9,571 bases of DNA from a virus (lineage: Duplodnaviria > Heunggongvirae > Uroviricota > Caudoviricetes): positions 1-9,571 of the IMG/VR virus record IMGVR_UViG_2703718868_000012. The stretch is one strand, 5' to 3'. Positions 1 to 9,571 of the stretch are shown here, piece by piece. Within the stretch, counting starts at the first letter, position 1. Every line of letters begins with the position of its first letter. Under the pieces are notes generated by a model. That model made no database searches and was not told the origin of the DNA. It was given only the letters and a program-made list of their open reading frames with translations. Position numbers and translations under genes: made by a program.

Positions 1-1890
1 TCATAGTGAATCTGTCCCGCCTGATTTGACCATACCGCGATAATCCAGAGCTGCCACACCTGCATCAATACGGACTTTCCAGGCCACGCCGTCAACGATA
101 AAACCTTCCTGCTGTTCAAGGTAAGGCTCGTCATTGCCATCAAGATAAGCCACCTCGATTGTGTCCGTTCCCTGTGCGGAAAGCATGTACCATTGTTTTT
201 CGCTGATATCATCAAGGCGGGGATCGACGATGATATCAAGTAGCTTGTGATACGGGTTAAAGATCCCGCTGTTTTTATCAGCCCCGAAAGGTGCGGTTGA
301 GTTAATCATCTGCAACGCGCGATCTTCCAGTGCTGCCGGAACTAAAAGGAATTTAGGCGCAATATTCAGCACTTCGCCATTTTTGTCCTTCTGTGTGCGC
401 ATCAGGTGACGTGCTGCACTAAGTCCCGGTGTTGTCAGTCCTGCTTCAATCAGGTTGCTGTGTTTTTTGTCAAACAGCGCTATTCCGTCAGAAAGTTTTA
501 CGTTGCCTGTAAGCACCAGATTAACCAGATTTCCCACCGTTCTTGATGCTGCACGGCCCATAGCCATTGGCACCGTTGATAACTGATCAAGGTCATCATT
601 GATTATCGCCTGGCGGGTAATACTGAAAATATTCCCGTAAGTAGCCAGCGCGATGGGTTCACCGCGATCGCTGGTGGTGATGTATTTATATTCTGCCCCT
701 TCCGGCACTTTGTTTAACGTTGAGAAGCCATTCATACCAACGCGGCGGGCTTCCCGGAAGTTTGAAAGGGAACCTTTTTTCGTCCACTGGCGGAATGTTT
801 CGCCGCTGTGCTCCCAGCCTGCAAGCACTGATTTTTCAGCGCCACCAGCAAGAATATCGGTAAAATCGCTGCTGCTGTGGGTGAATGCCGCGTTTACTAT
901 CTGCGAGCGTGTGCCGTAGCTGCCCGTGCTTATACCACGATGGGTTAATGATGCCTGTGCCATATCGAAAAGGCTCATCATGGCGTAAGGATTACCGCGT
1001 TCGGCCCGTTCGTGACCAAGACGCGCATTAAGCCCCTGGCGCATTGCATCGCCGGTTATGTTGCCGTTATCCGTGTACGCGTAGTAAAGATTTGCGGGGG
1101 TGGTTTTGTTTGTTGGCGTTGATTCTTTACCCATAGCGAGTAAAAGGCGTTCGCGTGCATTCTCAACGCTACATTCTGAATCAGCAAGACAACTTATAGC
1201 CAGGTCGTTATATCTTCCGTTGAACGTGCCAAACAATTCACGTATCCCGTTGAGTCGTTCCTGTTCTCCGCTGCCAGTTTTCTGGCTGATCATGTTTTTA
1301 ATATTTTCCGGCATATTTGAAAAATCTCCGATTCGTTTTGATTCAATTCGGGCCATTGCTGTAATCGCGGGTATAACCTCATCTGCGAAACCGTTAGCCT
1401 TACACTCATTGCCATCCATCCAGGTTTCCGCCTCCATCATGGCGGTGATTTCCTGTTTACTCCTGCCCGTTCTTCCGGCGTAGGTTTCTGCCATCGTGTC
1501 GCCCAGCTTGTCCATCAGGTCAGCAAAGCGGCGAACGTCGCCCGACACTCCGGCAGTAACACCACGGGGGGCATGTATCATCATCATCGCGTTTTCAGGC
1601 ATAACGATGTGATCGCCACACATGGCAATAAACGAGGCCATAGAAGCCGCCATGCCCTCAATGTGTACAATTTTCTTTGCCGGATGATTTTTCAGGGCGT
1701 TATAGATAGCCAGCCCTTCAAAGATGTCGCCACCAGGTGAATGGATGCGAAGATGGATTTCAGACGCATTACCACACGCGTTGATCTCGTCAGTAAGTGC
1801 CGATGCTTTTACACCGTACCCGCCGATCTCGTCATAAATGCGCACATAGACAACATCTGCCATAGCCTTAATGGAAAACCATGTTTTCAT
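1..1890 (-). CDS. Prohead serine protease (ClpP-like) - scaffold-like linker - HK97-fold major capsid protein, single 629-aa polypeptide
   Basis: ATG at 1890, TGA at 3-1. N-terminal ~170 aa carry ClpP-like motifs GMAASMASF (compare E. coli ClpP GQAASMGAF around the catalytic Ser) and MMMIHAPRG (ClpP MIHQP, catalytic His). Middle ~100 aa are charged and helical. C-terminal ~330 aa look like an HK97-family major capsid protein (...FNPYHKLLDIIVDPRLDD...). Confidence 0.85.
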   Translation of the reverse strand: MKTWFSIKAMADVVYVRIYDEIGGYGVKASALTDEINACGNASEIHLRIHSPGGDIFEGLAIYNALKNHPAKKIVHIEGMAASMASFIAMCGDHIVMPENAMMMIHAPRGVTAGVSGDVRRFADLMDKLGDTMAETYAGRTGRSKQEITAMMEAETWMDGNECKANGFADEVIPAITAMARIESKRIGDFSNMPENIKNMISQKTGSGEQERLNGIRELFGTFNGRYNDLAISCLADSECSVENARERLLLAMGKESTPTNKTTPANLYYAYTDNGNITGDAMRQGLNARLGHERAERGNPYAMMSLFDMAQASLTHRGISTGSYGTRSQIVNAAFTHSSSDFTDILAGGAEKSVLAGWEHSGETFRQWTKKGSLSNFREARRVGMNGFSTLNKVPEGAEYKYITTSDRGEPIALATYGNIFSITRQAIINDDLDQLSTVPMAMGRAASRTVGNLVNLVLTGNVKLSDGIALFDKKHSNLIEAGLTTPGLSAARHLMRTQKDKNGEVLNIAPKFLLVPAALEDRALQMINSTAPFGADKNSGIFNPYHKLLDIIVDPRLDDISEKQWYMLSAQGTDTIEVAYLDGNDEPYLEQQEGFIVDGVAWKVRIDAGVAALDYRGMVKSGGTDSL

Positions 1891-2081
1891 AGCCAGGCCC
1901 CTAACGTTGCCCTGTACCAGTATTCAACCGCGCTGCGTGTGATTTGTCCTTTCGTGGGTACTGGCATACCCGGGTGATTATCTTTGATGAACTGCTGATA
2001 GCGTTCGATCTTCTCCATAGTTCCGGCGTCTATGTGTACCGTGGCACTTTTATCCGGCTTTCTGGTGTTGTTCTCTGGCAT
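1887..2081 (-). CDS. Hypothetical 64-aa protein, first gene of the capsid operon
   Basis: Strong SD AAGGAGGTGG (plus 2087-2096) ~5 nt before the ATG at 2081. Stop overlaps the capsid ATG as ATGA (1887-1890). The track ORF begins 11 codons further upstream without an RBS. No recognisable motif. Confidence 0.5.
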   Translation of the reverse strand: MPENNTRKPDKSATVHIDAGTMEKIERYQQFIKDNHPGMPVPTKGQITRSAVEYWYRATLGAWL

Positions 2082-2157
2082 AAATCCACCTCCTTTTTGG
2101 TTAACGGGCATCATTATTGATCGATAAAAGTAATAGATAAATCATTTTCTACCTGAA

Positions 2158-2191
2158 AATCAGATTATGATTTTTCTGATTATTCTCACAA
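2158..2191 (-). promoter_or_regulatory. Candidate sigma70-type promoter for the capsid operon with overlapping 7-bp inverted repeat
   Basis: On the minus strand: -35 TTGTGA (plus 2186-2191), 16-nt spacer, -10 CATAAT (plus 2164-2169), about 80 nt upstream of the ATG at 2081. Inverted repeat AATCAGA (2158-2164) / TCTGATT (2175-2181) overlaps the -10. Confidence 0.3.
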
Positions 2192-2276
2192 AGGCAAAGT
2201 TATTGACGCATTTTTGCCATTGAAGCAGTATTAAGACTCGTCATCCTGGCGATAAAAACTCCTTTGTCGTGTAAAA

Positions 2277-2311
2277 GCGCCTCCGGTAACAGCAATCGGG
2301 GGCGCTTTTTT
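2277..2311 (+). terminator. Rho-independent terminator-like hairpin plus T-tract
   Basis: Stem GCGCCTCC (2277-2284) pairs with GGGGGCGC (2298-2305) with one G-U pair; 13-nt loop; followed by TTTTTT (2306-2311). The reverse complement has a weaker U-tract, so it may act partly in both directions. Confidence 0.45.
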
Positions 2312-2508
2312 GCGCCTGTTTTTTGTAAATGTTTTCGGGAACGTTCCGGTGATGAACAAAAAACAACCTGATTCGATACTAAAAATTTTTATTTCTCAAC
2401 ATATCAATAGCTTATAGTGGTGGTGATGGTGCCATAAAAATCAAAAAATGCGCCTTTTTCCGCGCCCCTCCGCCCCGTGTTCAGGCCCACCCCGCCAGGA
2501 GGACCCGT

Positions 2509-2532
2509 AAAAAAGCCGGATTGCTCCGGCTT
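2509..2532 (-). terminator. Rho-independent terminator downstream of the ssb-like gene
   Basis: Hairpin AAGCCGG (2513-2519) / CCGGCTT (2526-2532), loop ATTGCT. On the minus strand it is followed by a U-tract (plus-strand A6 at 2509-2514). Lies ~15 nt past the stop at 2547-2549. Confidence 0.6.
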
Positions 2533-2546
2533 CTGTCACTCGTCGC

Positions 2547-2969
2547 TTAAAACGGTATGTTATCCCCGTACGGATCATCATTCCCCGCCTGTTGTTTTGC
2601 CCTGTTCAGCGCGTCAGTAGCCTGGCCCTGTTGACCTTTTTTGCCGCCCAGTCGCGCCGTTCGCGCACTGATTACACTGTCTGCGATAACCTGCCAGCCC
2701 TGCCGCGTTTCTCCGTTCTGCCCAGTCCACTGGCTGATCTGCATGTTACCCGCCACGCTCAGGAGTTCACCCTTGCGGTGCCTTTCCAGTGCTTCGGCCT
2801 GTCTGCCAAATGCCAGGACGGATAACCACATCGTCGCCGTTCCGTCATCTGCCTGGCTGCACGGAAGGGGGACCGCCATACGCGCCAGCGTCATCGGTGT
2901 GCCCTTGCTGGTCTGTTTTACCTGCGGGTCGTCCACCAGCCGCCCGTAAGCGGCTATCTGTGCTGTCAT
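2547..2969 (-). CDS. ssb: Single-stranded DNA-binding protein (SSB-like, OB fold with acidic ...IPF tail)
   Basis: 140 aa. N-terminal region aligns by eye with E. coli SSB (GRL..DP.V...W..V..FG..AE....KG....V.G......W....G..R). Gly/Gln-rich linker. C-terminus DDPYGDNIPF resembles the conserved SSB tail DDDIPF. ATG at 2969 overlaps the upstream stop as ATGA. Confidence 0.8.
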   Translation of the reverse strand: MTAQIAAYGRLVDDPQVKQTSKGTPMTLARMAVPLPCSQADDGTATMWLSVLAFGRQAEALERHRKGELLSVAGNMQISQWTGQNGETRQGWQVIADSVISARTARLGGKKGQQGQATDALNRAKQQAGNDDPYGDNIPF

Positions 2970-3223
2970 GATTCCACCTCTCCGGTTTTAACGTTGATTG
3001 TTGTTACCTGTTCCGCTTCGGCAATCTCCCGCTCTGTCAGCGTGGCAAAATTTGCCGCCGTCGTGGTCATGAATGCGCTTATCAGTTCGGGATGTGCTTT
3101 CGCGTATCCTTCCCCCGTGTTGCGGTCGATGATTTTTATCGCCACTCTCAGCCAGTGCTCTGTAAGGTCAATGGCGCGGTTATGCTGCTTCTTCTGATTA
3201 TTAAGTTTTCCTGATGTGCGCAT
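2966..3223 (-). CDS. Hypothetical 85-aa protein between the origin and ssb
   Basis: ATG at 3223 with a G-rich SD-like stretch (GAGGGGG) ~13 nt upstream; 4-nt ATGA overlap with ssb. No recognisable motif. Confidence 0.5.
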   Translation of the reverse strand: MRTSGKLNNQKKQHNRAIDLTEHWLRVAIKIIDRNTGEGYAKAHPELISAFMTTTAANFATLTEREIAEAEQVTTINVKTGEVES

Positions 3224-3271
3224 TTTTATTTTTACCCCCTCGTTTAAAAAGTTTTGAGTTGTGCCTCCCCT

Positions 3272-3498
3272 TGTCTACCTTATCTACCTTACTGGCCACC
3301 ATGCCAGTAATGGCGCGGCTTTCAGTGGGGTAGAGTGCTTTTATCCACTATCTACCCCGTATCTACCTCCCTGTCTGATTCAGGTAAAATCAGGTAGAGA
3401 GGGTAGATAGTAGGTAGACAGTAAAAAAAGGCTGTCTACCCAAGTTAATGTACTGAATTAAATGTATTTTTCTTTACTCAGGTAGACAGGGTAGACAG
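3272..3498. repeat. Iteron array, putative replication origin
   Basis: Eleven copies of the core GGTAGA / TCTACC. Plus-orientation TCTACC at 3274, 3283, 3351, 3362, 3435; reverse GGTAGA at 3329, 3393, 3402, 3413, 3481, 3490. Includes tandem GGTAGACAG x2 (3481-3498) and a 9-bp inverted pair GGTAGACAG (3413-3421) / CTGTCTACC (3432-3440). AT-rich stretch 3441-3480. Sits immediately 3' of the primase gene. Confidence 0.7.
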
Positions 3499-3511
3499 CC
3501 ATTGCAACAAA

Positions 3512-5266
3512 TTATAAAAACGCGTCGCAATCGTCTGTTGTTATTGCGTTAGTCTGCGTTACTCCTTTAACTTTCCGCGTAATATATTCATGTCCGTAAA
3601 CTTTCGCGGCTGGCTTCATAGCCTTGCCAAAGTCATTTACGTTTAGCGGTTTGCTCCTGCCTGCGTACGCCATAAACGCCAGATAGACGCGGTAAAGGCT
3701 GTTTCTGGTCGTGTACTTCACTGAATCGCCACCGCCGCCCATCATCAGGCCGCGTGCTTCCTCCAGAAAATTCAGGAACTGGCAAAACTCAATAACCGGA
3801 TCCGTCTGTTGCTTTATTGCCAGTGCTTCATCACCGTCACGCTGTTCCAGTAGTAAAGCCCGTGCCTTCTCAGGGTCGGTAAAGTTCGCCAGCAATCGGC
3901 GGATAATGACAGGGATTTCAGCCGCAATCTTTTCCGGTAGCTCCCTGTCTTTTTCGGCCTCACTGACGATATTGTCGAAACGGAAAATCACGCGACGACG
4001 TGCCACACCTCCGGCCCGTTCGGTGAATATCATCGGGTTATTGTTGGTCGCCAGCACCACCGCCCTGATTACAGCCGTGAAACGCTTTTCGTATTTCGGG
4101 TTAATTTCCACGGGGTCACCGCCCGTGATTTTCTTGATGCCCGTTCCTTCGCCTGTATATTTCGGCTGGTCAGCCAGGACGATAAGGCGACTCCCGACAA
4201 CCTGCGCACGTCCACCAGCATCATCAAGCGATGTCATTTCAGCGCTTACCGTGTTCTGTTTCCCTGCCAGAAGGCTGGCTATGTGTGTGAATGTACTTTT
4301 ACCGCTCCCGCCGTCTCCGGTGGCCTCAATAAACATCTGCCAGTCGTACCGGTTCGCCATAATCATGTACAGCGCGGCACATATCCGCATCATCTTGCGC
4401 GGGTCTTTTCCGGCTGCGTGCTCAAGCCATTTATGAAAGTTTGGCGCGTTATCGCGGATGTTCTCCCCTGGTGCTGGTGGCGTGTACTCAATACTGTTGT
4501 GCGTGGTGATCCAGTTCTCCGGCGTGTGCGGGGAAAATTCCCCCGTTTTCAGGTCAAGCGCACCATTGGCAAACGGCAGCAAATCGCCGGACGGCTCGCC
4601 CATTGGTTCGGCAATAACTTTTAACGCTTCCACGGCGTTATTGATTACGCGCTTGCTGAAAGTGGCCCTGTGCTCTGAATAGATCGCCACCATTTCGCGG
4701 CTAAGTTCCATTGTGCTGACCGGACACCATACCCCGCCGCGCCATACGTGAACGATTTCACTTTCAGGATGCACGCAAACGCCATCAAATCGTCCGGCAA
4801 GAAGTTGAGCGCGCTCACTGTCCGCCATCTGCGAAAGTTGCGCCTTTTGCTTTACAGGAAGCTCAATAACCAGCCCATCAGAAAGATTCTGGCGCTCACT
4901 GGCCAGATATTCGCGCCAGTTCTCCACCTTCTGACCGTGCATACCATCAGGGTAAAAATTTGCATCCTGTACGCCTGCCGCCGCCAGCTTCTGACCAATC
5001 GCCTTTATCATTACTGGCGCAAGATATCCGGCCCTGAATATGCGCACGGATTTTCTGCCTTCCGGCACAATTTGCAGCTTATCCAGTTCTGATAACTGCT
5101 GCTCCCCAAGCCACACAGGAGGCTCATTATCTCCGGCCATACGCGCGTCATGTTCCTGCCATTGTTTCGCGTGTGACCAGGCATCACTACCCGCAAAAAT
5201 AATGACTTCTGTTTCTTTGTGTTTTATGCCGCGTGGCTGCTGTTTTACGTTCGGTGCCAGTTTCAT
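3512..5266 (-). CDS. Phage/plasmid primase, P4 family (primase-helicase, D5-like NTPase)
   Basis: 584 aa. Walker A GDGGSGKST seen directly; a Walker B-like hydrophobic stretch ...LIVLAD... follows. Overall resemblance to the P4-alpha C-terminal / D5-type replicative primase-helicases of satellites. ATG at 5266 overlaps the upstream stop as ATGA; SD AGGGG ~8 nt upstream. Confidence 0.85.
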   Translation of the reverse strand: MKLAPNVKQQPRGIKHKETEVIIFAGSDAWSHAKQWQEHDARMAGDNEPPVWLGEQQLSELDKLQIVPEGRKSVRIFRAGYLAPVMIKAIGQKLAAAGVQDANFYPDGMHGQKVENWREYLASERQNLSDGLVIELPVKQKAQLSQMADSERAQLLAGRFDGVCVHPESEIVHVWRGGVWCPVSTMELSREMVAIYSEHRATFSKRVINNAVEALKVIAEPMGEPSGDLLPFANGALDLKTGEFSPHTPENWITTHNSIEYTPPAPGENIRDNAPNFHKWLEHAAGKDPRKMMRICAALYMIMANRYDWQMFIEATGDGGSGKSTFTHIASLLAGKQNTVSAEMTSLDDAGGRAQVVGSRLIVLADQPKYTGEGTGIKKITGGDPVEINPKYEKRFTAVIRAVVLATNNNPMIFTERAGGVARRRVIFRFDNIVSEAEKDRELPEKIAAEIPVIIRRLLANFTDPEKARALLLEQRDGDEALAIKQQTDPVIEFCQFLNFLEEARGLMMGGGGDSVKYTTRNSLYRVYLAFMAYAGRSKPLNVNDFGKAMKPAAKVYGHEYITRKVKGVTQTNAITTDDCDAFL

Positions 5267-5562
5267 TTTTTGCCCCTGAATCCGTTAATCATGTTTTTCA
5301 TCTTCTGAATATTGGCGCGTGCTTTCTCCCTGCTGGTGGGCACGTTACGCGGTACGGCCTGCACAAGAGAAAAATCACGCCGGAACTGATAAACAGGCAT
5401 CACGCAATCATATTCGTAACCTTCACGGCGGTAAGTTACGCACCGTCCCGCCACGCCCTTAATCATTACCGTGCCGCCGTACTGGTCGCGGTAAATATCA
5501 CCGCGCGTAAATTTAGGGTGAGTGTTGCCACTGGCAGTTAAGCCAGAATATTTAAATTTCAT
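5263..5562 (-). CDS. Hypothetical 99-aa protein, translationally coupled to the primase
   Basis: ATG at 5562, 5 nt after the upstream TAA; stop overlaps the primase ATG. Basic protein, no motif recognised. Confidence 0.5.
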   Translation of the reverse strand: MKFKYSGLTASGNTHPKFTRGDIYRDQYGGTVMIKGVAGRCVTYRREGYEYDCVMPVYQFRRDFSLVQAVPRNVPTSREKARANIQKMKNMINGFRGKK

Positions 5563-5567
5563 TATTT

Positions 5568-5801
5568 TTATTCTCCGGTGTGCTGTTCGTTATATCTGTC
5601 GTGCAATTGGTCTATTTCTTGCAGTTCCATTATTACAGGCTCAAGAAGCGTTATTAATGCCGTGGCAATTCTTGATTTTTGTTTGTCGCGTTCATTGTCG
5701 CCAAGTGTTTCAAGCCATATGCGCAATATTTCCAGCATGTTTTCACTGTGAGAAAGTGCAAGAAATGCGCGGTATATTGTTTCAAGATAAATATCACGCA
5801 T
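5568..5801 (-). CDS. Hypothetical 77-aa protein
   Basis: ATG at 5801 with a G-rich SD-like stretch (GGGGA) ~6 nt upstream; start sits 1 nt after the upstream stop (TAATATG). Predicted helical, acidic. Confidence 0.5.
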   Translation of the reverse strand: MRDIYLETIYRAFLALSHSENMLEILRIWLETLGDNERDKQKSRIATALITLLEPVIMELQEIDQLHDRYNEQHTGE

Positions 5802-5802
5802 A

Positions 5803-6024
5803 TTAATCCCCGTCCGTTGTTTTTCTTAAAACAGCTTCTGTCACGAAATCGGCATAGTTAGCGGCAATATCAAGAATATTTAGCCCTGTATCTCTGTGCT
5901 CATCAGTGCAAAGAAAGAAAAAAGCCACCCGCATAATTTCAGATATTAACGAAAGCGCATCAACCGCATCATCAGGAACGCCGGAAAATTCTTGTTTCAG
6001 GGAATTAAAACGATCATCACGCAT
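5803..6024 (-). CDS. Hypothetical 73-aa protein (start chosen at the internal ATG after the G8 tract)
   Basis: ATG at 6024 lies 2 nt after a G8 run that can act as SD, and overlaps the upstream gene's stop by 8 nt. The track start at 6072 would overlap the upstream gene by 56 nt with no RBS. Confidence 0.45.
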   Translation of the reverse strand: MRDDRFNSLKQEFSGVPDDAVDALSLISEIMRVAFFFLCTDEHRDTGLNILDIAANYADFVTEAVLRKTTDGD

Positions 6025-6238
6025 AACCCCCCCCATTTTCACAATCAGCAACAAGAATATTTTTAGCGTCATTCAGTGACCGCGTTGCGGTGTATCGGAT
6101 ACATTCCAGGGCGAATAGTGTGTATTCTTCCCGTCCTTCCTTTTGTGCAAGCTCTGCTGTGCATTCAATATCAATAAGCGCGTGCATCAGCGTAGTGAGT
6201 GCGGCAGCTGCTGCGTCCGGTGTGGTTTTATTGTGCAT
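6017..6238 (-). CDS. Hypothetical 73-aa protein
   Basis: ATG at 6238 preceded by AGGGGGA ~6 nt upstream. The track start at 6277 is a TTG without RBS support. The last codons (...ENGGGYA) run through the G8 tract. Confidence 0.45.
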   Translation of the reverse strand: MHNKTTPDAAAAALTTLMHALIDIECTAELAQKEGREEYTLFALECIRYTATRSLNDAKNILVADCENGGGYA

Positions 6239-6428
6239 AGGTTTCCCCCTGGCGAATACGGGCGGCGAATACCGCAATACAACCGGACGGGCAACGGCTA
6301 CGCGCTTCGCGTTCCGTCCAGGCGGTTACGTGGATGATTTGAGATTCTCCGGCACTCAGTGCCAGAAAACGCCACACAAAGGCCGTTTGTGTGTGTGCTA
6401 GTCGTGGGGTATGATTTACGGCAACCAT
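6228..6428 (-). CDS. Hypothetical 66-aa protein, first ORF of the small-ORF/primase operon
   Basis: ATG at 6428 with SD GAGAGGT ~6 nt upstream; ends 11 nt inside the next ORF in another frame. No motif recognised. Confidence 0.4.
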   Translation of the reverse strand: MVAVNHTPRLAHTQTAFVWRFLALSAGESQIIHVTAWTEREARSRCPSGCIAVFAARIRQGETYAQ

Positions 6429-6502
6429 AAATTTACCTCTCTATAGTGTTTGTGGTTAGACGCCCTGCATGTGTTCCAGCACTGTGGGGCGTTGTTTTTT
6501 GG

Positions 6503-6575
6503 TGCAAGTCACCTTGAAATCTAGGTTACTTTTAGGTGACTTGCACTTCAAGTCTTTTTTTATTTTTTTTTCTCC
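6503..6575. promoter_or_regulatory. Divergent control region: 12-bp perfect inverted repeat (operator-like) followed by a hairpin and long T-tract
   Basis: TGCAAGTCACCT (6503-6514) and AGGTGACTTGCA (6534-6545) are exact reverse complements, 19-bp spacer. Second hairpin GACTTG (6538-6543) / CAAGTC (6549-6554) is followed by T7-A-T9 (6555-6571). Lies between the divergent starts at 6428 (minus) and 6613 (plus). Confidence 0.45.
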
Positions 6576-6612
6576 GTATACTGAACACCACCTAACAGTA
6601 AGGAGAACAGAG

Positions 6613-6792
6613 ATGCCAACAGGTACAACCAACAACAAGTCACAACAAAAAACTGCTAGAGTACCTCTAGACGTTTTAAGCGAAATGAATTTGGTAAAAG
6701 AAGAAAACGAAACAGACGCACAATTTATCGTTACTGCCATGCGCGGCGAAATCAAACGCCGCCAGCGTCGCAAGGCCAAAGAATCAGAATAA
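6613..6792 (+). CDS. Small basic protein, possible ribbon-helix-helix DNA-binding regulator (59 aa)
   Basis: Canonical SD AAGGAG (6600-6605) 7 nt before the ATG at 6613. Sequence ...ARVPLDVLSEMNLVKEENETDAQFIVTAMRGEIKRRQRRK fits a beta-strand / helix / loop / helix RHH pattern with a basic tail. The first ~120 nt are markedly AT-rich. The longer track ORF from 6469 would translate the palindrome and T-tract. Confidence 0.55.
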   Translation: MPTGTTNNKSQQKTARVPLDVLSEMNLVKEENETDAQFIVTAMRGEIKRRQRRKAKESE

Positions 6793-6849
6793 TCACTATC
6801 AGCGCCGTGGTGTGAGGTACTACGGCGCATTGCTTTACAGGGCAGTATC

Positions 6850-7077
6850 ATGACCAACAACACACTATCACCAATACAAGACACGCAAACGCAAGATGAT
6901 GAAATCATCCGGCAAAGGCAGTCAGAAGCCTGCGCCAGACTTGAGGAAGAACTAACCAGAACAAAAATACCACCACCAGCGCCGCGCTTAGTGCCACCAG
7001 AAAAATTTGCCCTTGAAGATTTTGTCGATAAATACCCACGGCGGCTTAAATCCGGCAAAAACCGACCGCCAGGATGA
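6850..7077 (+). CDS. Hypothetical 75-aa protein (acidic, helical N-half, Pro-rich C-half)
   Basis: ATG at 6850 with a weak GGG SD ~7 nt upstream; reading frame looks protein-like. Preceded by hairpin GCGCCGT (6802-6808) / ACGGCGC (6822-6828). Confidence 0.4.
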   Translation: MTNNTLSPIQDTQTQDDEIIRQRQSEACARLEEELTRTKIPPPAPRLVPPEKFALEDFVDKYPRRLKSGKNRPPG

Positions 7078-7196
7078 GTGCACAAGACGGAACCATGAAA
7101 CGGATTATTCCGTTTCCGGGGCGTTTGTGTGTGTATAAAGAGTAAGCTATGCTCTTTTATAGCCATAATCGTTACCTCAATTAATGGTTTGGTTAG

Positions 7197-7238
7197 AAGC
7201 CCGTTGGTGTTCATAGCGCCAGCGGGCTTTGCTTTTTG
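7197..7238 (+). terminator. Rho-independent terminator ending the 6613-7077 transcription unit
   Basis: 11-bp stem AAGCCCGTTGG (7197-7207) / CCAGCGGGCTT (7219-7229) with one G-U pair, 11-nt loop, then a U-rich tail TTGCTTTTTGTG. Confidence 0.5.
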
Positions 7239-7248
7239 TGTTGATTGT

Positions 7249-7282
7249 ATGTAATGTGTCACCACGCATAAATACATTACAT
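7249..7282 (+). promoter_or_regulatory. 9-bp perfect inverted repeat, candidate operator just upstream of the Arc-like gene
   Basis: ATGTAATGT (7249-7257) and ACATTACAT (7274-7282) are exact reverse complements, 16-bp spacer. Preceded by a TTGATT -35-like hexamer (7241-7246); ends 15 nt before the GTG start. Confidence 0.35.
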
Positions 7283-7296
7283 GAGGTGTAATTAAC

Positions 7297-7476
7297 GTGT
7301 CAACACACAAAAACGAAAGGCGTGGTAATCCTCCGTTCCAGTTCCGTTTAGATCCTGACTTACGGGAAAAGATGGAAAAGGCACAACAACATGACGGCGA
7401 TGATTCTCTTGCTGCCTGGATAAAGCGAATAATCCGCAAAGAATTACAGCAACGCGGCATAGAACCCAAAGGGTAA
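7297..7476 (+). CDS. Arc-family ribbon-helix-helix DNA-binding protein (59 aa)
   Basis: GTG at 7297 with SD GAGGTG 8 nt upstream. PPFQFRLDPDLREKMEKAQQHDGDDSLAAWIKRIIRKEL matches the Arc repressor pattern (P22 Arc PQFNLRWPREVLDLVRKVAEENGRSVNSEIYQRV). Absent from the supplied track (GTG start, under 60 aa). Confidence 0.6.
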   Translation: MSTHKNERRGNPPFQFRLDPDLREKMEKAQQHDGDDSLAAWIKRIIRKELQQRGIEPKG

Positions 7477-7571
7477 TTACATTGCCCACCAGCCTGATAG
7501 CGGCTATCATTCCCGTGCTTATGTTTGGGATCACATACACATAAGGCGCAGCAGGTTAATTGTTCACAAGG

Positions 7572-7597
7572 GCGTTCCGGCAACGGGGCGCTTTTTG
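7572..7597 (+). terminator. Terminator-like hairpin plus T5 downstream of the Arc-like gene
   Basis: Stem GCGTTCC (7572-7578) / GGGGCGC (7585-7591) including G-U pairs, loop GGCAAC, then TTTTT. No U-tract on the opposite strand. Confidence 0.35.
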
Positions 7598-7626
7598 TTA
7601 TGTTCATCGTGTCAAGCCTCACACCA

Positions 7627-7833
7627 TTACGCAGCCGTTCCGCGTGCTTCCTGCTCACGTTCTTTCATCCATGCGATTACGTCTTCCTCATACCATCCGC
7701 GACGGCGTAAACCAACGCGAAAACCCTGCGGAAATTCTCCGGCGTTGATCATGCTTTGAAGCGTGCTGTCTGCCTTGATGTGGATAAGTTTTTTTACTTC
7801 CTGGCGAAAGATGACTTTTTTGATTGCTTCCAT
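7627..7833 (-). CDS. alpA: AlpA-family transcriptional regulator / excisionase-like protein (68 aa)
   Basis: ...IKADSTLQSMINAGEFPQGFRVGLRRRGWYEEDVIAWMKE matches the AlpA pattern (helix-turn-helix, then G.FP...LG.R...W...V..W). Sits near the integrase as in P4-like and PICI elements. Confidence 0.8.
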   Translation of the reverse strand: MEAIKKVIFRQEVKKLIHIKADSTLQSMINAGEFPQGFRVGLRRRGWYEEDVIAWMKEREQEARGTAA

Positions 7834-7965
7834 CGTGATTTACCTTGTGAATCCGGTGTATTCCGGTGACAAATACGGTAAATCATCGGATACGGGTAAA
7901 AACAGTTCCCACCGTTTTTAAACTGTTAGAACCGTTTTTTATGTTGGTGATTTGAAAGGGATTTA

Positions 7966-7990
7966 TAAAAAAAGCGGCATTTCTGCCGCT
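7966..7990 (-). terminator. Rho-independent terminator after the 83-aa ORF
   Basis: Perfect 7-bp stem AGCGGCA (7973-7979) / TGCCGCT (7984-7990), loop TTTC. On the minus strand it is followed by U7 (plus-strand A-run 7967-7973). Lies 11 nt past the stop at 8001. Confidence 0.6.
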
Positions 7991-8000
7991 TTGAGGATTG

Positions 8001-8252
8001 TTACCGCCATTTTTTTGGCCTGCCTCCGGTCTTCATGGTTGCCGGACGAACTACCCTGTCGATACTTTCAGCCATATTCCTGGATGCCCCACGGGATACC
8101 AGGAAATCTACTACCTGTTTTTTTGATGGGGCCGTCGTTCTGTCCTCCGGATCGTAGGTTGACCAAAATTCATGCTGAACCATCAGGGCCAGTTGCAGCC
8201 CGTCGCAATTGCATCTGAAATTTTTTTGCATCTTAACGGTTTCATGTTTCAC
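8001..8252 (-). CDS. Hypothetical 83-aa protein between integrase and alpA
   Basis: Open frame with GTG at 8252 (weak AAGG SD) or internal ATG at 8231; basic C-terminus ...KTGGRPKKWR; own terminator. Start uncertain. Confidence 0.4.
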   Translation of the reverse strand: MKHETVKMQKNFRCNCDGLQLALMVQHEFWSTYDPEDRTTAPSKKQVVDFLVSRGASRNMAESIDRVVRPATMKTGGRPKKWR

Positions 8253-8329
8253 GGCCTTGTCGTTAAATTTGATGCAATTATACGACGGTTTTACATGGTT
8301 TTCGTAGTTTTTACTGGTTTTCTGTACAG

Positions 8330-9571
8330 CTAAACGGCTCGGATACCCCTTTTACCACTGGCGAGGGTTACGCCCGTCGCCGCAGCCTCGACAAATTCGC
8401 CCCACCAGCGCATAAGCACCACGCGTTTTTCTATGTAGTTGCTCCGGTTGTATGCCCGTCTCACTTCGTTAGTGTCGACGTGGGCAAGTGCGGCCTCGAT
8501 TACGTCCGGCTCGAATCCTTCCTCGTTCGCTGCTGTACTGAATATGGCGCGTAATCCATGAGACACCAGCACGCCAGCGAACCCCATGCGTCGTAATGCT
8601 GCGTTTGCTGTCTGGCTGTTCATTGGCTGCCGTGGGTCTTTCAGACTCGGGAAAACATAATCGCGGTGGCGGCTGATTGGTTTCATGGCCTCCAGCACCG
8701 CCATAGCCTGACCGGAAAGTGGGATAACGTGATCCCTGCGCATCTTCATGCGTCCGGCGGGTATCGTCCAGCGTTGCGCGTCCAGGTCGATTTCATCCCA
8801 CCGCGTTGATGACGCTTCGGCGGGACGGGTTACGGTCAGTAACTGCCATTCAATCAGTAATCTGGTCTGCCGTTCTGTTGCCGATACTGATAAAGCCTGC
8901 ATAAGCTCCGGCAACTGTTCGGGGCGGATTGTTGGCATATGTTTTTTTACAGGGGAGGGGAACGCCTTACGCACATTCATAGCCGGATTGGCATCAATCA
9001 GCCCACTGTTGGCGGCGTAATCCATTACCTCATTAACGCGCTGTAAAACCCGTTTGAGTGTTTCCAGGTTGCCGCGCTCCTTGATGGGGGTAAGCACCTC
9101 AACGAACCTGCGAGCGGTCAGGGTGTCTATTGGGGTGTTGCCGATGAACGGGAATACATATTTATCCAGCGATCGCCAGATGTCTTTAATCGTGTTGGGG
9201 GCCAGATTCTGGCTGATTTTCACCTGGTACCATGCCGCCGCCACATTTTCGAACGTGTTCCCTTGTCTTCGGGCCTCTGCCTCTCGTTTTTTCTTCTCAT
9301 GGCCCTGCGGGTCAGTTCCGGCACTGATTAACGCTCTGTACTCGCTACGGCGTTTTCTGGCATCAGCCAGGGAAACATCATCAAGCGATCCAAAACTCAG
9401 CAATATTCTTTTTTTGTCCGATGGCCGGTAGTAGGAAAATCGCCAGAGTTTTGATCCGGACGGTTTGACCAGGAGAAAAAGCCCTCCGCCGTCCTGTAGG
9501 GTGTATTCCTTTTCCGCTGGTCTGGCTGCTTTGATCTGCACCGTGGTTAATGGGGGTGTTTTTCTCGCCAT
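8330..9571 (-). CDS. int: Site-specific tyrosine integrase, P4 / CP4-57 type
   Basis: 413 aa. N-terminus MARKTPPLTTVQIKAARPAEKEYTLQDGGGLFLLVKPSGSKLWRFSYY is typical of P4-family integrase arm-binding domains. C-terminal catalytic region carries HGLR... and ...RAYNRSNY (candidate His/Arg/Tyr residues). ATG is at the very last bases of the window, so upstream signals are unseen. Confidence 0.9.
   Translation of the reverse strand: MARKTPPLTTVQIKAARPAEKEYTLQDGGGLFLLVKPSGSKLWRFSYYRPSDKKRILLSFGSLDDVSLADARKRRSEYRALISAGTDPQGHEKKKREAEARRQGNTFENVAAAWYQVKISQNLAPNTIKDIWRSLDKYVFPFIGNTPIDTLTARRFVEVLTPIKERGNLETLKRVLQRVNEVMDYAANSGLIDANPAMNVRKAFPSPVKKHMPTIRPEQLPELMQALSVSATERQTRLLIEWQLLTVTRPAEASSTRWDEIDLDAQRWTIPAGRMKMRRDHVIPLSGQAMAVLEAMKPISRHRDYVFPSLKDPRQPMNSQTANAALRRMGFAGVLVSHGLRAIFSTAANEEGFEPDVIEAALAHVDTNEVRRAYNRSNYIEKRVVLMRWWGEFVEAAATGVTLASGKRGIRAV

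Follow-up and report, generated by a model that had tools for sequence, protein, structure and literature searches.

A natural, slippage-prone poly-G tract at the junction of two small genes in an Escherichia coli phage satellite

When a run of identical bases stands where one small gene ends and the next begins, and one base more or less decides whether the two are read as one, is the run a switch, a recoding signal, a sequencing error or simply part of an ordinary two-gene junction? The question is raised by a 9,571-nucleotide (nt) stretch of viral DNA (positions 1 to 9,571 of the IMG/VR record IMGVR_UViG_2703718868_000012, hereafter the window), which its genes mark as a phage satellite of E. 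coli of the phage-inducible chromosomal island (PICI) type, apparently of the capsid-forming kind, and in which a G8 homopolymer (6027..6034, minus strand; C8 on the plus strand) lies at the junction of two open reading frames (ORFs) of 73 amino acids (aa) each. The homopolymer at this two-gene junction is real, occurs naturally and is prone to slippage; it is of the same kind as that of Campylobacter jejuni cj0031/cj0032. Here, we argue for what we hold to be its probable explanation, namely that there are two genes, that the G run serves both as glycine codons of the first and as ribosome-binding site of the second, and that slippage shuffles the frame between them at little cost.

At the junction (6040-6017) the minus strand reads GAAAATGGGGGGGGTTATGCGTGA, with the codons GAT TGT GAA AAT GGG GGG GGT TAT GCG TGA, the G8 tract encoding the glycine codons GGG GGG GG(T) of the upstream ORF. 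This ORF, which we call the N-half (6017..6238, minus strand; ATG at 6238-6236 and TGA at 6019-6017; 222 nt, being 73 aa plus stop), starts MHNKTTPDAAAA and has the C-terminus ADCENGGGYA*. The downstream ORF, the C-half or MRDDRF gene (5803..6024, minus strand; ATG at 6024-6022 and stop at 5805-5803; again 222 nt, 73 aa plus stop), starts MRDDRFNSLKQEF, and a gap of 2 nt separates its ATG from the last G of the tract. In the G8 allele, start and stop overlap by 8 nt, ATGCGTGA (6017..6024, minus strand), an arrangement typical of translational coupling that is also annotated in E. coli ZH48 and F8704-2. An initial annotation of the window had placed the G8 tract in the last codons of the upstream ORF, just before the downstream ATG, which sequence and ORF coordinates confirm, the ATG position that it implied (6025-6023) being one base off. 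The frame of the C-half is +1 relative to that of the N-half, and a tract of seven or ten G residues therefore gives a fusion, ...ENGGVMRDDRF... (144 aa). The same annotation was also right that one G fewer would yield a protein of ~145 aa: the computed fusion has 144 aa, O157:H7 (G7) provides a natural example, and natural proteins of 144-145 aa are known that are 97-98% identical to the conceptual fusion. The tract is thus a homopolymer of at least ~7 units within a coding region, and no G/C run elsewhere in the window exceeds a G6. Runs of at least 8 G/C arise in 20% of mononucleotide (composition-preserving) shuffles of the window, and the G8 alone is therefore statistically unremarkable; what lifts it beyond chance is where it lies and that its length varies among relatives.

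In nature the tract ranges from G6 to G12, each of the three frame relations being common. The first six homologous loci, with junctions otherwise near-identical, already comprise G7 (O157 644-PT8 and SW4848), G8 (ZH48 and F8704-2), G9 (O111:H8 02-3334) and G10 (JB2) alleles, and RefSeq annotates G7 as one coding sequence (CDS) of 148-154 aa, G8 as two 73-aa CDSs, G9 as a 'frameshifted' pseudogene and G10 as one 152-aa CDS. A change of repeat number hence alters the product, the fused, split and third-frame forms following from the sequence and being annotated as such. The calls made at this locus by RefSeq and its Prokaryotic Genome Annotation Pipeline (PGAP) are inconsistent (for example in O111:H8 02-3334, our locus L004, 1066-1511, and in loci L003, L005 and L006) and are set by the G count alone.

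The junction is present in 737 of 5,426 complete E. coli genomes, at 883 places. Exact copies were counted with queries of 45-48 nt, at which length one mismatch drops a hit below the identity band, and were found as G7 in 382 genomes, G8 in 204, G9 in 182 and G10 in 28; a single genome, E2865, holds two copies, one G7 and one G9. An exact-flank pattern scan of contigs extended the census to 53 metagenome contigs (G7 10, G8 27, G9 12, G10 1, G11 0, interrupted 3) and 80 matches in IMG/VR (G7 21, G8 28, G9 18, G10 3, G11 2, interrupted 8), making 133 contigs when pooled (G7 31, G8 55, G9 30, G10 4, G11 2, interrupted 11). The distribution from G7 to G11 (31:55:30:4:2) is unimodal, lacks a 3-nt periodicity and prefers no frame, with non-fused alleles making up ~74% of these independent contigs. 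All 11 interrupted tracts lie in non-fused frames, a small number from loci that are possibly not independent. High-coverage SPAdes contigs include G7 (coverage 65), G8 (216 and 53) and G9 (44) alleles. G8 is the modal natural allele in the 133 contigs, and not an error.

The tract changes faster than ~500 nt of flank gains one substitution. Among 21 haplotypes with two or more members, defined by identical flanks of ~260 nt on each side, eight show more than one tract length, and of 65 pairs with identical flanks 22 are unequal in tract length; the shorter runs of these loci show no variation (A4 in 151/151, T6 in 29/29 and G5 in 7/7). On a 140-tip neighbour-joining tree of the flanks, the frame class has to change at least 48 times, compared with 60.4 +/- 2.8 when the tips are shuffled, so that tract length keeps only a weak phylogenetic signal. 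The lengths are heritable alleles all the same. On identical 85-nt flanks of the O157 type, G8 occurs in eight O55:H7 genomes and in some O111:H8 and other genomes, G6 in three O145 genomes (O145 being G6 or G7), and G7 in all O157:H7 records listed, with no O157:H7 among the exact G8 or G6 records listed; for these ~92-nt queries the '>=99%' band also took in matches of 98.9%, and only the rows listed were used. O55:H7 is the progenitor lineage of O157:H7, and within the latter, a young clone, G7 seems to be stable. E. coli is proficient in mismatch repair, with homopolymer indel rates inferred to be far below those of Campylobacter, which is without MutS/MutL mismatch repair. The pattern of lability fits the length-dependent indel rate of repair-proficient E. 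coli, where the rate depends exponentially on the length of the run (PMC8510543), and is at odds with the rates measured for the G8-G11 tracts of Campylobacter, 1e-4 to 1e-3 per division (PMC3401435).

Whether the two ORFs are one gene or two is best judged from distant relatives. A natural fused protein has only 40 relatives among representatives, at 50% identity, of ~15 billion proteins, and the representatives lacking the G tract all stand alone, at ~72-77 aa. They resemble either the N-half (P0143, of 72 aa, with the C-terminus ..ADIQEVGHA and no glycine run, and P0155, of 76 aa) or the C-half (P0140 and P0157, of 77 aa, P0141, of 76 aa, and P0150, of 75 aa); a further stand-alone N-half, P0139 (73 aa), ends in ..ADCENGGGYA, so that the G8-type junction is kept. 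The neighbours differ as well. In one locus (L153) an N-half homologue is followed, across ...CAGGAGGTGGGGCATGCATAA, by a homologue of the third small ORF of the window, and in two others (L154 and L155) an unrelated 91-aa gene is followed, across ...CAGGAGGTACGTCCATGA, by a C-half homologue, the junctions of these distant homologues having a canonical AGGAGG instead of the G run. The idea that homologues might normally carry a single ORF of ~145 aa is therefore not upheld, the distant relatives being separate genes with AGGAGG junctions. In every fused protein inspected, the G tract encodes the joint, ...NGG(G)VMRDD, with the sole exception of P0133, in which a shortened and interrupted junction (...EYGVMRDD) sits inside an implausible 477-aa read-through ORF, and none of the fused relatives among the 50%-identity representatives is joined outside the conserved G-tract junction. 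The internal methionine (M72) is invariant in 20 fused proteins. BLASTP detected no similarity between the N-half and the C-half, nor between the C-half and the third small ORF, and neither pair are therefore detectable paralogues. On these comparisons, the halves are separate gene modules that recombine independently, and the fusion is a derived state that depends on the tract.

The MRDDRF gene also occurs behind another partner. In ABU 83972 and PCN033 it is preceded by a different gene, of 118-121 aa, that ends in a G7/G6 run followed by TAAAC and the ATG, and this second junction is likewise polymorphic in IMG/VR (G6 35, G7 4, G8 3, G10 2), varying less than the main one in line with its shorter modal length. 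Sites of this kind are found at 1190-1215 of locus L151, at 1190-1212 of L152 and in the IMG/VR loci L156-L199 (islands of the CFT073/ABU 83972 type); a G8 there would join the 118-121-aa gene in frame to MRDDRF. At the main junction, the segment ..ILIADCENGG(G)VMRDDRFNSLKQEFSG.. (window 5960-6060; alignment columns 60-95) is the best-conserved part of both proteins, and the N-half and C-half variants that flank it are combined in differing ways, which suggests that the junction is a recombination joint between modules.

A plausible role for the G run itself is that of a Shine-Dalgarno (SD) sequence. The predicted duplex with the anti-SD of 16S rRNA has an energy of -11.1 to -11.3 kcal/mol for G7-G10 (-11.1 for G8) and of -11.6 kcal/mol for the AGGAGG junctions of the distant homologues, with five other starts in the operon being weaker than the G run (-5.7 to -9.4 kcal/mol), and the run can pair with the anti-SD in several registers. 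It is thus predicted to be a ribosome-binding site of the C-half gene about as strong as AGGAGG. Whatever the frame class, neither half-ORF departs from its normal length, and the ratio of non-synonymous to synonymous polymorphism (pN/pS) of the C-half is ~0.4 in each of the three classes. The arrangement resembles that of coupled overlapping genes of phages and operons (ATGA or ATGnnTGA) in its 8-nt overlap and in having an SD-like run, 2-10 nt before the ATG, inside the upstream ORF; it differs in having an SD made of G residues alone, in place of AGGAGG, and the junction is therefore mutationally unstable.

Taken together, the explanation that we favour is one in which replication slippage on a homopolymer of 7-10 nt would add or remove G residues, and copies would drift among three frame states over evolutionary time. 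With 8 or 11 residues there are two ORFs with the 8-nt overlap, as in the window, and with 7 or 10 a single fused protein of 144-154 aa; with 6, 9 or 12, the N-half gains a short tail, ...GGLCVMIVLIP*, and stops 30 nt inside the C-half gene. Every state keeps the downstream ATG and the G-rich predicted SD, so that both segments could still be made, joined or apart, and the frame of the junction would therefore be under little selection and close to neutral. The frame state is thus probably of little functional consequence. Several points weigh against this explanation. We infer both the use of the downstream ATG and the equivalence of fused and split products, and the G9 state, which adds a hydrophobic tail of nine residues and removes the stop/start overlap, might not be harmless. 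State-specific pN/pS values carry little weight, as the states interconvert faster than substitutions accumulate, and those of the N-half are unreliable, a 6-codon indel being left unaligned. The complete-genome counts are inflated by clonal sampling, of O157:H7 above all, tract lengths called from long-read assemblies may in some cases be wrong, and the flank tree ignores recombination among mosaic islands. Lastly, a one-gene view draws some support from PGAP, which labels one or more G9 alleles as frameshifted pseudogenes of the fused form, and from PHROGs, where a fused family exists (phrog_2512).

Four other explanations have to be considered, which in order of likelihood are a contingency switch, an ancestral single gene, recoding or transcriptional slippage, and a sequencing error. 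A true contingency locus, at which mutability is itself selected and the fused form differs in activity from the split and third-frame forms, for instance in helper interference, induction or replication, is unlikely in our view, even as the foremost of the four. With 7-10 residues the tract is as long as known poly-G switches can be, its length has almost no tie to the phylogeny of the flanks, all frame states persist, and the independent second gene context before MRDDRF also has a variable G run. The nearest analogue, moreover, is a demonstrated switch: in C. jejuni cj0031/cj0032 a G8-G9 tract, polymorphic among isolates, is likewise located at the 3' end of the first ORF, a change in its length fuses the ORFs, and measured switching amounts to ~1e-4 to 1e-3 events per division, with a restriction-modification enzyme being ON when the ORFs are fused (Bayliss et al. 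2012, PMC3401435). The satellite differs from this system in that its C-half has its own start codon and predicted SD, with the halves being independent genes in relatives, so that no state turns off either ORF. Its length distribution is agnostic of frame, its host is proficient in mismatch repair with indel rates that depend on run length, and the O157:H7 records listed are uniformly G7, none being found among the exact G8 and G6 records listed on the same flanks. The slipped-strand, phase-variable switch of the initial annotation accordingly survives in part: natural length variation is borne out (G6-G12, on identical flanks, with short runs invariant), whereas a high-frequency ON/OFF mode finds no support in the uniform O157:H7 records or in a distribution without a preferred frame. 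A more specific form of the idea, in which the poly-G tract would be a selected switch of a satellite in a repair-proficient host, giving a mixture of fused and split early protein whose forms differ in their interaction with helper phage or host, is improbable; slippage might then perhaps be boosted by the replication burst of the satellite after induction, and the tract would, if this were true, be a PICI-borne contingency locus in ~14% of E. coli genomes.

The remaining three explanations are contradicted by the features tested. If the fused protein of 144-154 aa were the functional product of one ancestral gene, with G8 and G9 alleles inactivated by frameshift or decaying, the frequency of fused alleles (382 plus 28 complete genomes), widely recorded as proteins, and the 'frameshifted' label given by PGAP to the G9 allele would be accounted for; we nonetheless think this quite improbable, given that the halves are separate in relatives without the G tract, with different neighbours and canonical SD junctions, that no fused relative among the 50%-identity representatives has a junction other than the G-tract one, that non-fused alleles constitute ~74% of independent contigs and keep both ORFs intact with an unchanged C-half pN/pS, and that the 11 of 11 interrupted, presumably stabler, tracts are in non-fused frames. 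Still less credit is due to programmed recoding on G8, whereby a ribosomal +1 (or -2) slip on GGG GGG GGU, or slippage of RNA polymerase, would add some fusion to the separate proteins. As read from the sequence, tRNA-Gly would re-pair perfectly at +1 within the run, and slippage with mixed transcripts would also explain an unconstrained DNA frame. Against this, the sites of transcriptional slippage known from bacteria are for the most part A/T runs of at least 9. There is a likeness to the +1 site of prfB (release factor 2), which has the sequence AGGGGGUAUCUUUGAC: there, too, a G-rich SD-like element is followed within a few nucleotides by an in-frame UGA, with continuation in the +1 frame, and the order in the satellite, an SD-like run, UAU, one further codon and then UGA, is similar. 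A prfB-like frameshift of this kind (G-rich SD-like run plus UAU-NNN-UGA) was rejected, in that the GCG before the stop, unlike the slippery CUU of prfB, cannot re-pair at +1 (CGU), the frame relation is unconserved among relatives, and the 111 nt downstream of the site contain no significant RNA structure (z = +0.87; 162/200 shuffles fold at least as well). A programmed site should fix frame and length, whereas all three frame relations are common here, the codon that enters the A site after the glycine codons is a common one, and the proposal of the initial annotation is to that extent unsupported. IS1/IS3-type orfA-orfB pairs similarly consist of two overlapping ORFs joinable at a mononucleotide run, but these insertion sequences use a conserved -1 A-rich slippery motif, a fixed frame and a stimulatory structure, and the satellite joins its ORFs at the DNA level, by allele. 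The least likely of all is that an error of sequencing or assembly in the record split one gene, as had also been proposed; homopolymers of 8 nt are error-prone on some platforms, yet G8 is the commonest allele in metagenome and IMG/VR contigs (55/133, including the SPAdes contigs of coverage 216 and 53), occurs in 204 complete genomes and on O157-type flanks in eight O55:H7 genomes, and has its product pair annotated in several RefSeq genomes, while the distant halves are separate and their junctions non-homopolymeric.

The two proteins themselves give few clues. Sequence searches of Pfam, NCBIfam, PADLOC and the PDB gave no match for either half, and in PHROGs only families without an assigned function were matched, namely phrog_5146 for the N-half, phrog_24341 for the C-half and the fused phrog_2512, the N-half corresponding to its N-terminal part and the C-half to its C-terminal part. 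AlphaFold2 modelling of the fused protein from an alignment of 20 sequences gave an all-helical structure of low confidence (mean predicted local distance difference test score 51.5; predicted template modelling score 0.35), in which the N-half is tentatively predicted to form a helical hairpin, and which is therefore too poor for a fold search. Related islands share 'hypothetical proteins' with no function assigned (PMC11773190).

Both 73-aa ORFs belong to the early, AlpA-side operon, the genes of which, from icd to the primase, are so packed that stops and starts overlap or nearly abut, all on the minus strand. Directly upstream of the N-half is an Icd-like gene (6228..6428; NF033153, 1.5e-17), which runs 11 nt into the start of the N-half before its stop. 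The third small ORF (5568..5801; 77 aa, phrog_2196) begins 1 nt past the C-half stop and is followed by a DUF4222 gene (5263..5562; PF13973, 1.9e-23), which overlaps the start of the D5_N/DUF5906 primase-helicase (3512..5266; Pfam), the replication gene of the island. Further Pfam matches on the same strand are a tyrosine integrase (8330-9571), an AlpA-like helix-turn-helix protein (7627-7833; a weak match, below cut-off), a single-stranded DNA-binding protein (2547-2969) and a fusion of a ClpP-like prohead protease to a Phage_capsid_4 major capsid protein (1-1890), a fusion typical of capsid-forming PICIs; its stop is at the first bases of the window, so that its 3' end abuts the window start. 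An integrase, an AlpA-type regulator, a unidirectional operon with a primase, a small size and its own protease and capsid genes are thus all present, judging from the genes. The likeness extends to Gram-negative PICIs of the EcCICFT073 type and to capsid-forming PICIs, with which the window shares integrase, AlpA, unidirectional transcription and primase, and, with the latter, the prohead protease-capsid gene (Fillol-Salom et al. 2018, PMC6092414); the island of ABU 83972 also has the MRDDRF gene. RefSeq relatives adjoin tRNA-Pro and have an identical gene order, followed by small terminase subunit and capsid genes. Parts of the window match 1,825 of the 5,426 complete E. coli genomes, the top match having 95.9% identity over 93% of the window, the module is without a match in the INPHARED phage collection, and an Rfam scan of the window matched no family. 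No description of a variable poly-G tract in PICIs of E. coli turned up in the literature searched.

Two further observations concern the region upstream of the operon. A second long homopolymer pair, T7-A-T9 on the plus strand (6555-6571; A9-T-A7 on the minus strand), is located in a divergent intergenic region, just upstream of a plus-strand YlcI/YnfO-like ORF (probable start ~6613, end 6792), and may be an UP-element or promoter spacer, possibly slippage-prone too; being shared by only two retrieved loci, it was unusable as a control for variability. A 400-aa ORF with a GTG start (6456-7658, minus strand) has a Cys/Ser-rich translation of low-complexity appearance and overlaps the plus-strand ORFs 6469-6792, 6850-7077 and 7297-7476. 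What relatives have in this place is a pseudogene resembling icd, together with a YlcI/YnfO gene on the reverse strand, and the 400-aa ORF is probably spurious.

Unlike the Campylobacter tract, the G8 tract belongs to a phage satellite of a repair-proficient host, and the second start built into its junction means that the frame state probably matters little. For annotation, the recognition of natural variation at a two-gene junction prevents both false pseudogene and false fusion calls. The alleles are also a possible lineage marker, with G8 in O55:H7, G7 in O157:H7 and G6/G7 in O145, notably for the transition from O55:H7 to O157:H7, and the natural 'locked' interrupted alleles are ready-made experimental controls. 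The biological interest of the locus is moderate unless the frame states differ in function; if they do, this would be a case of repeat-driven variation that is rare both in E. coli and in a phage satellite.

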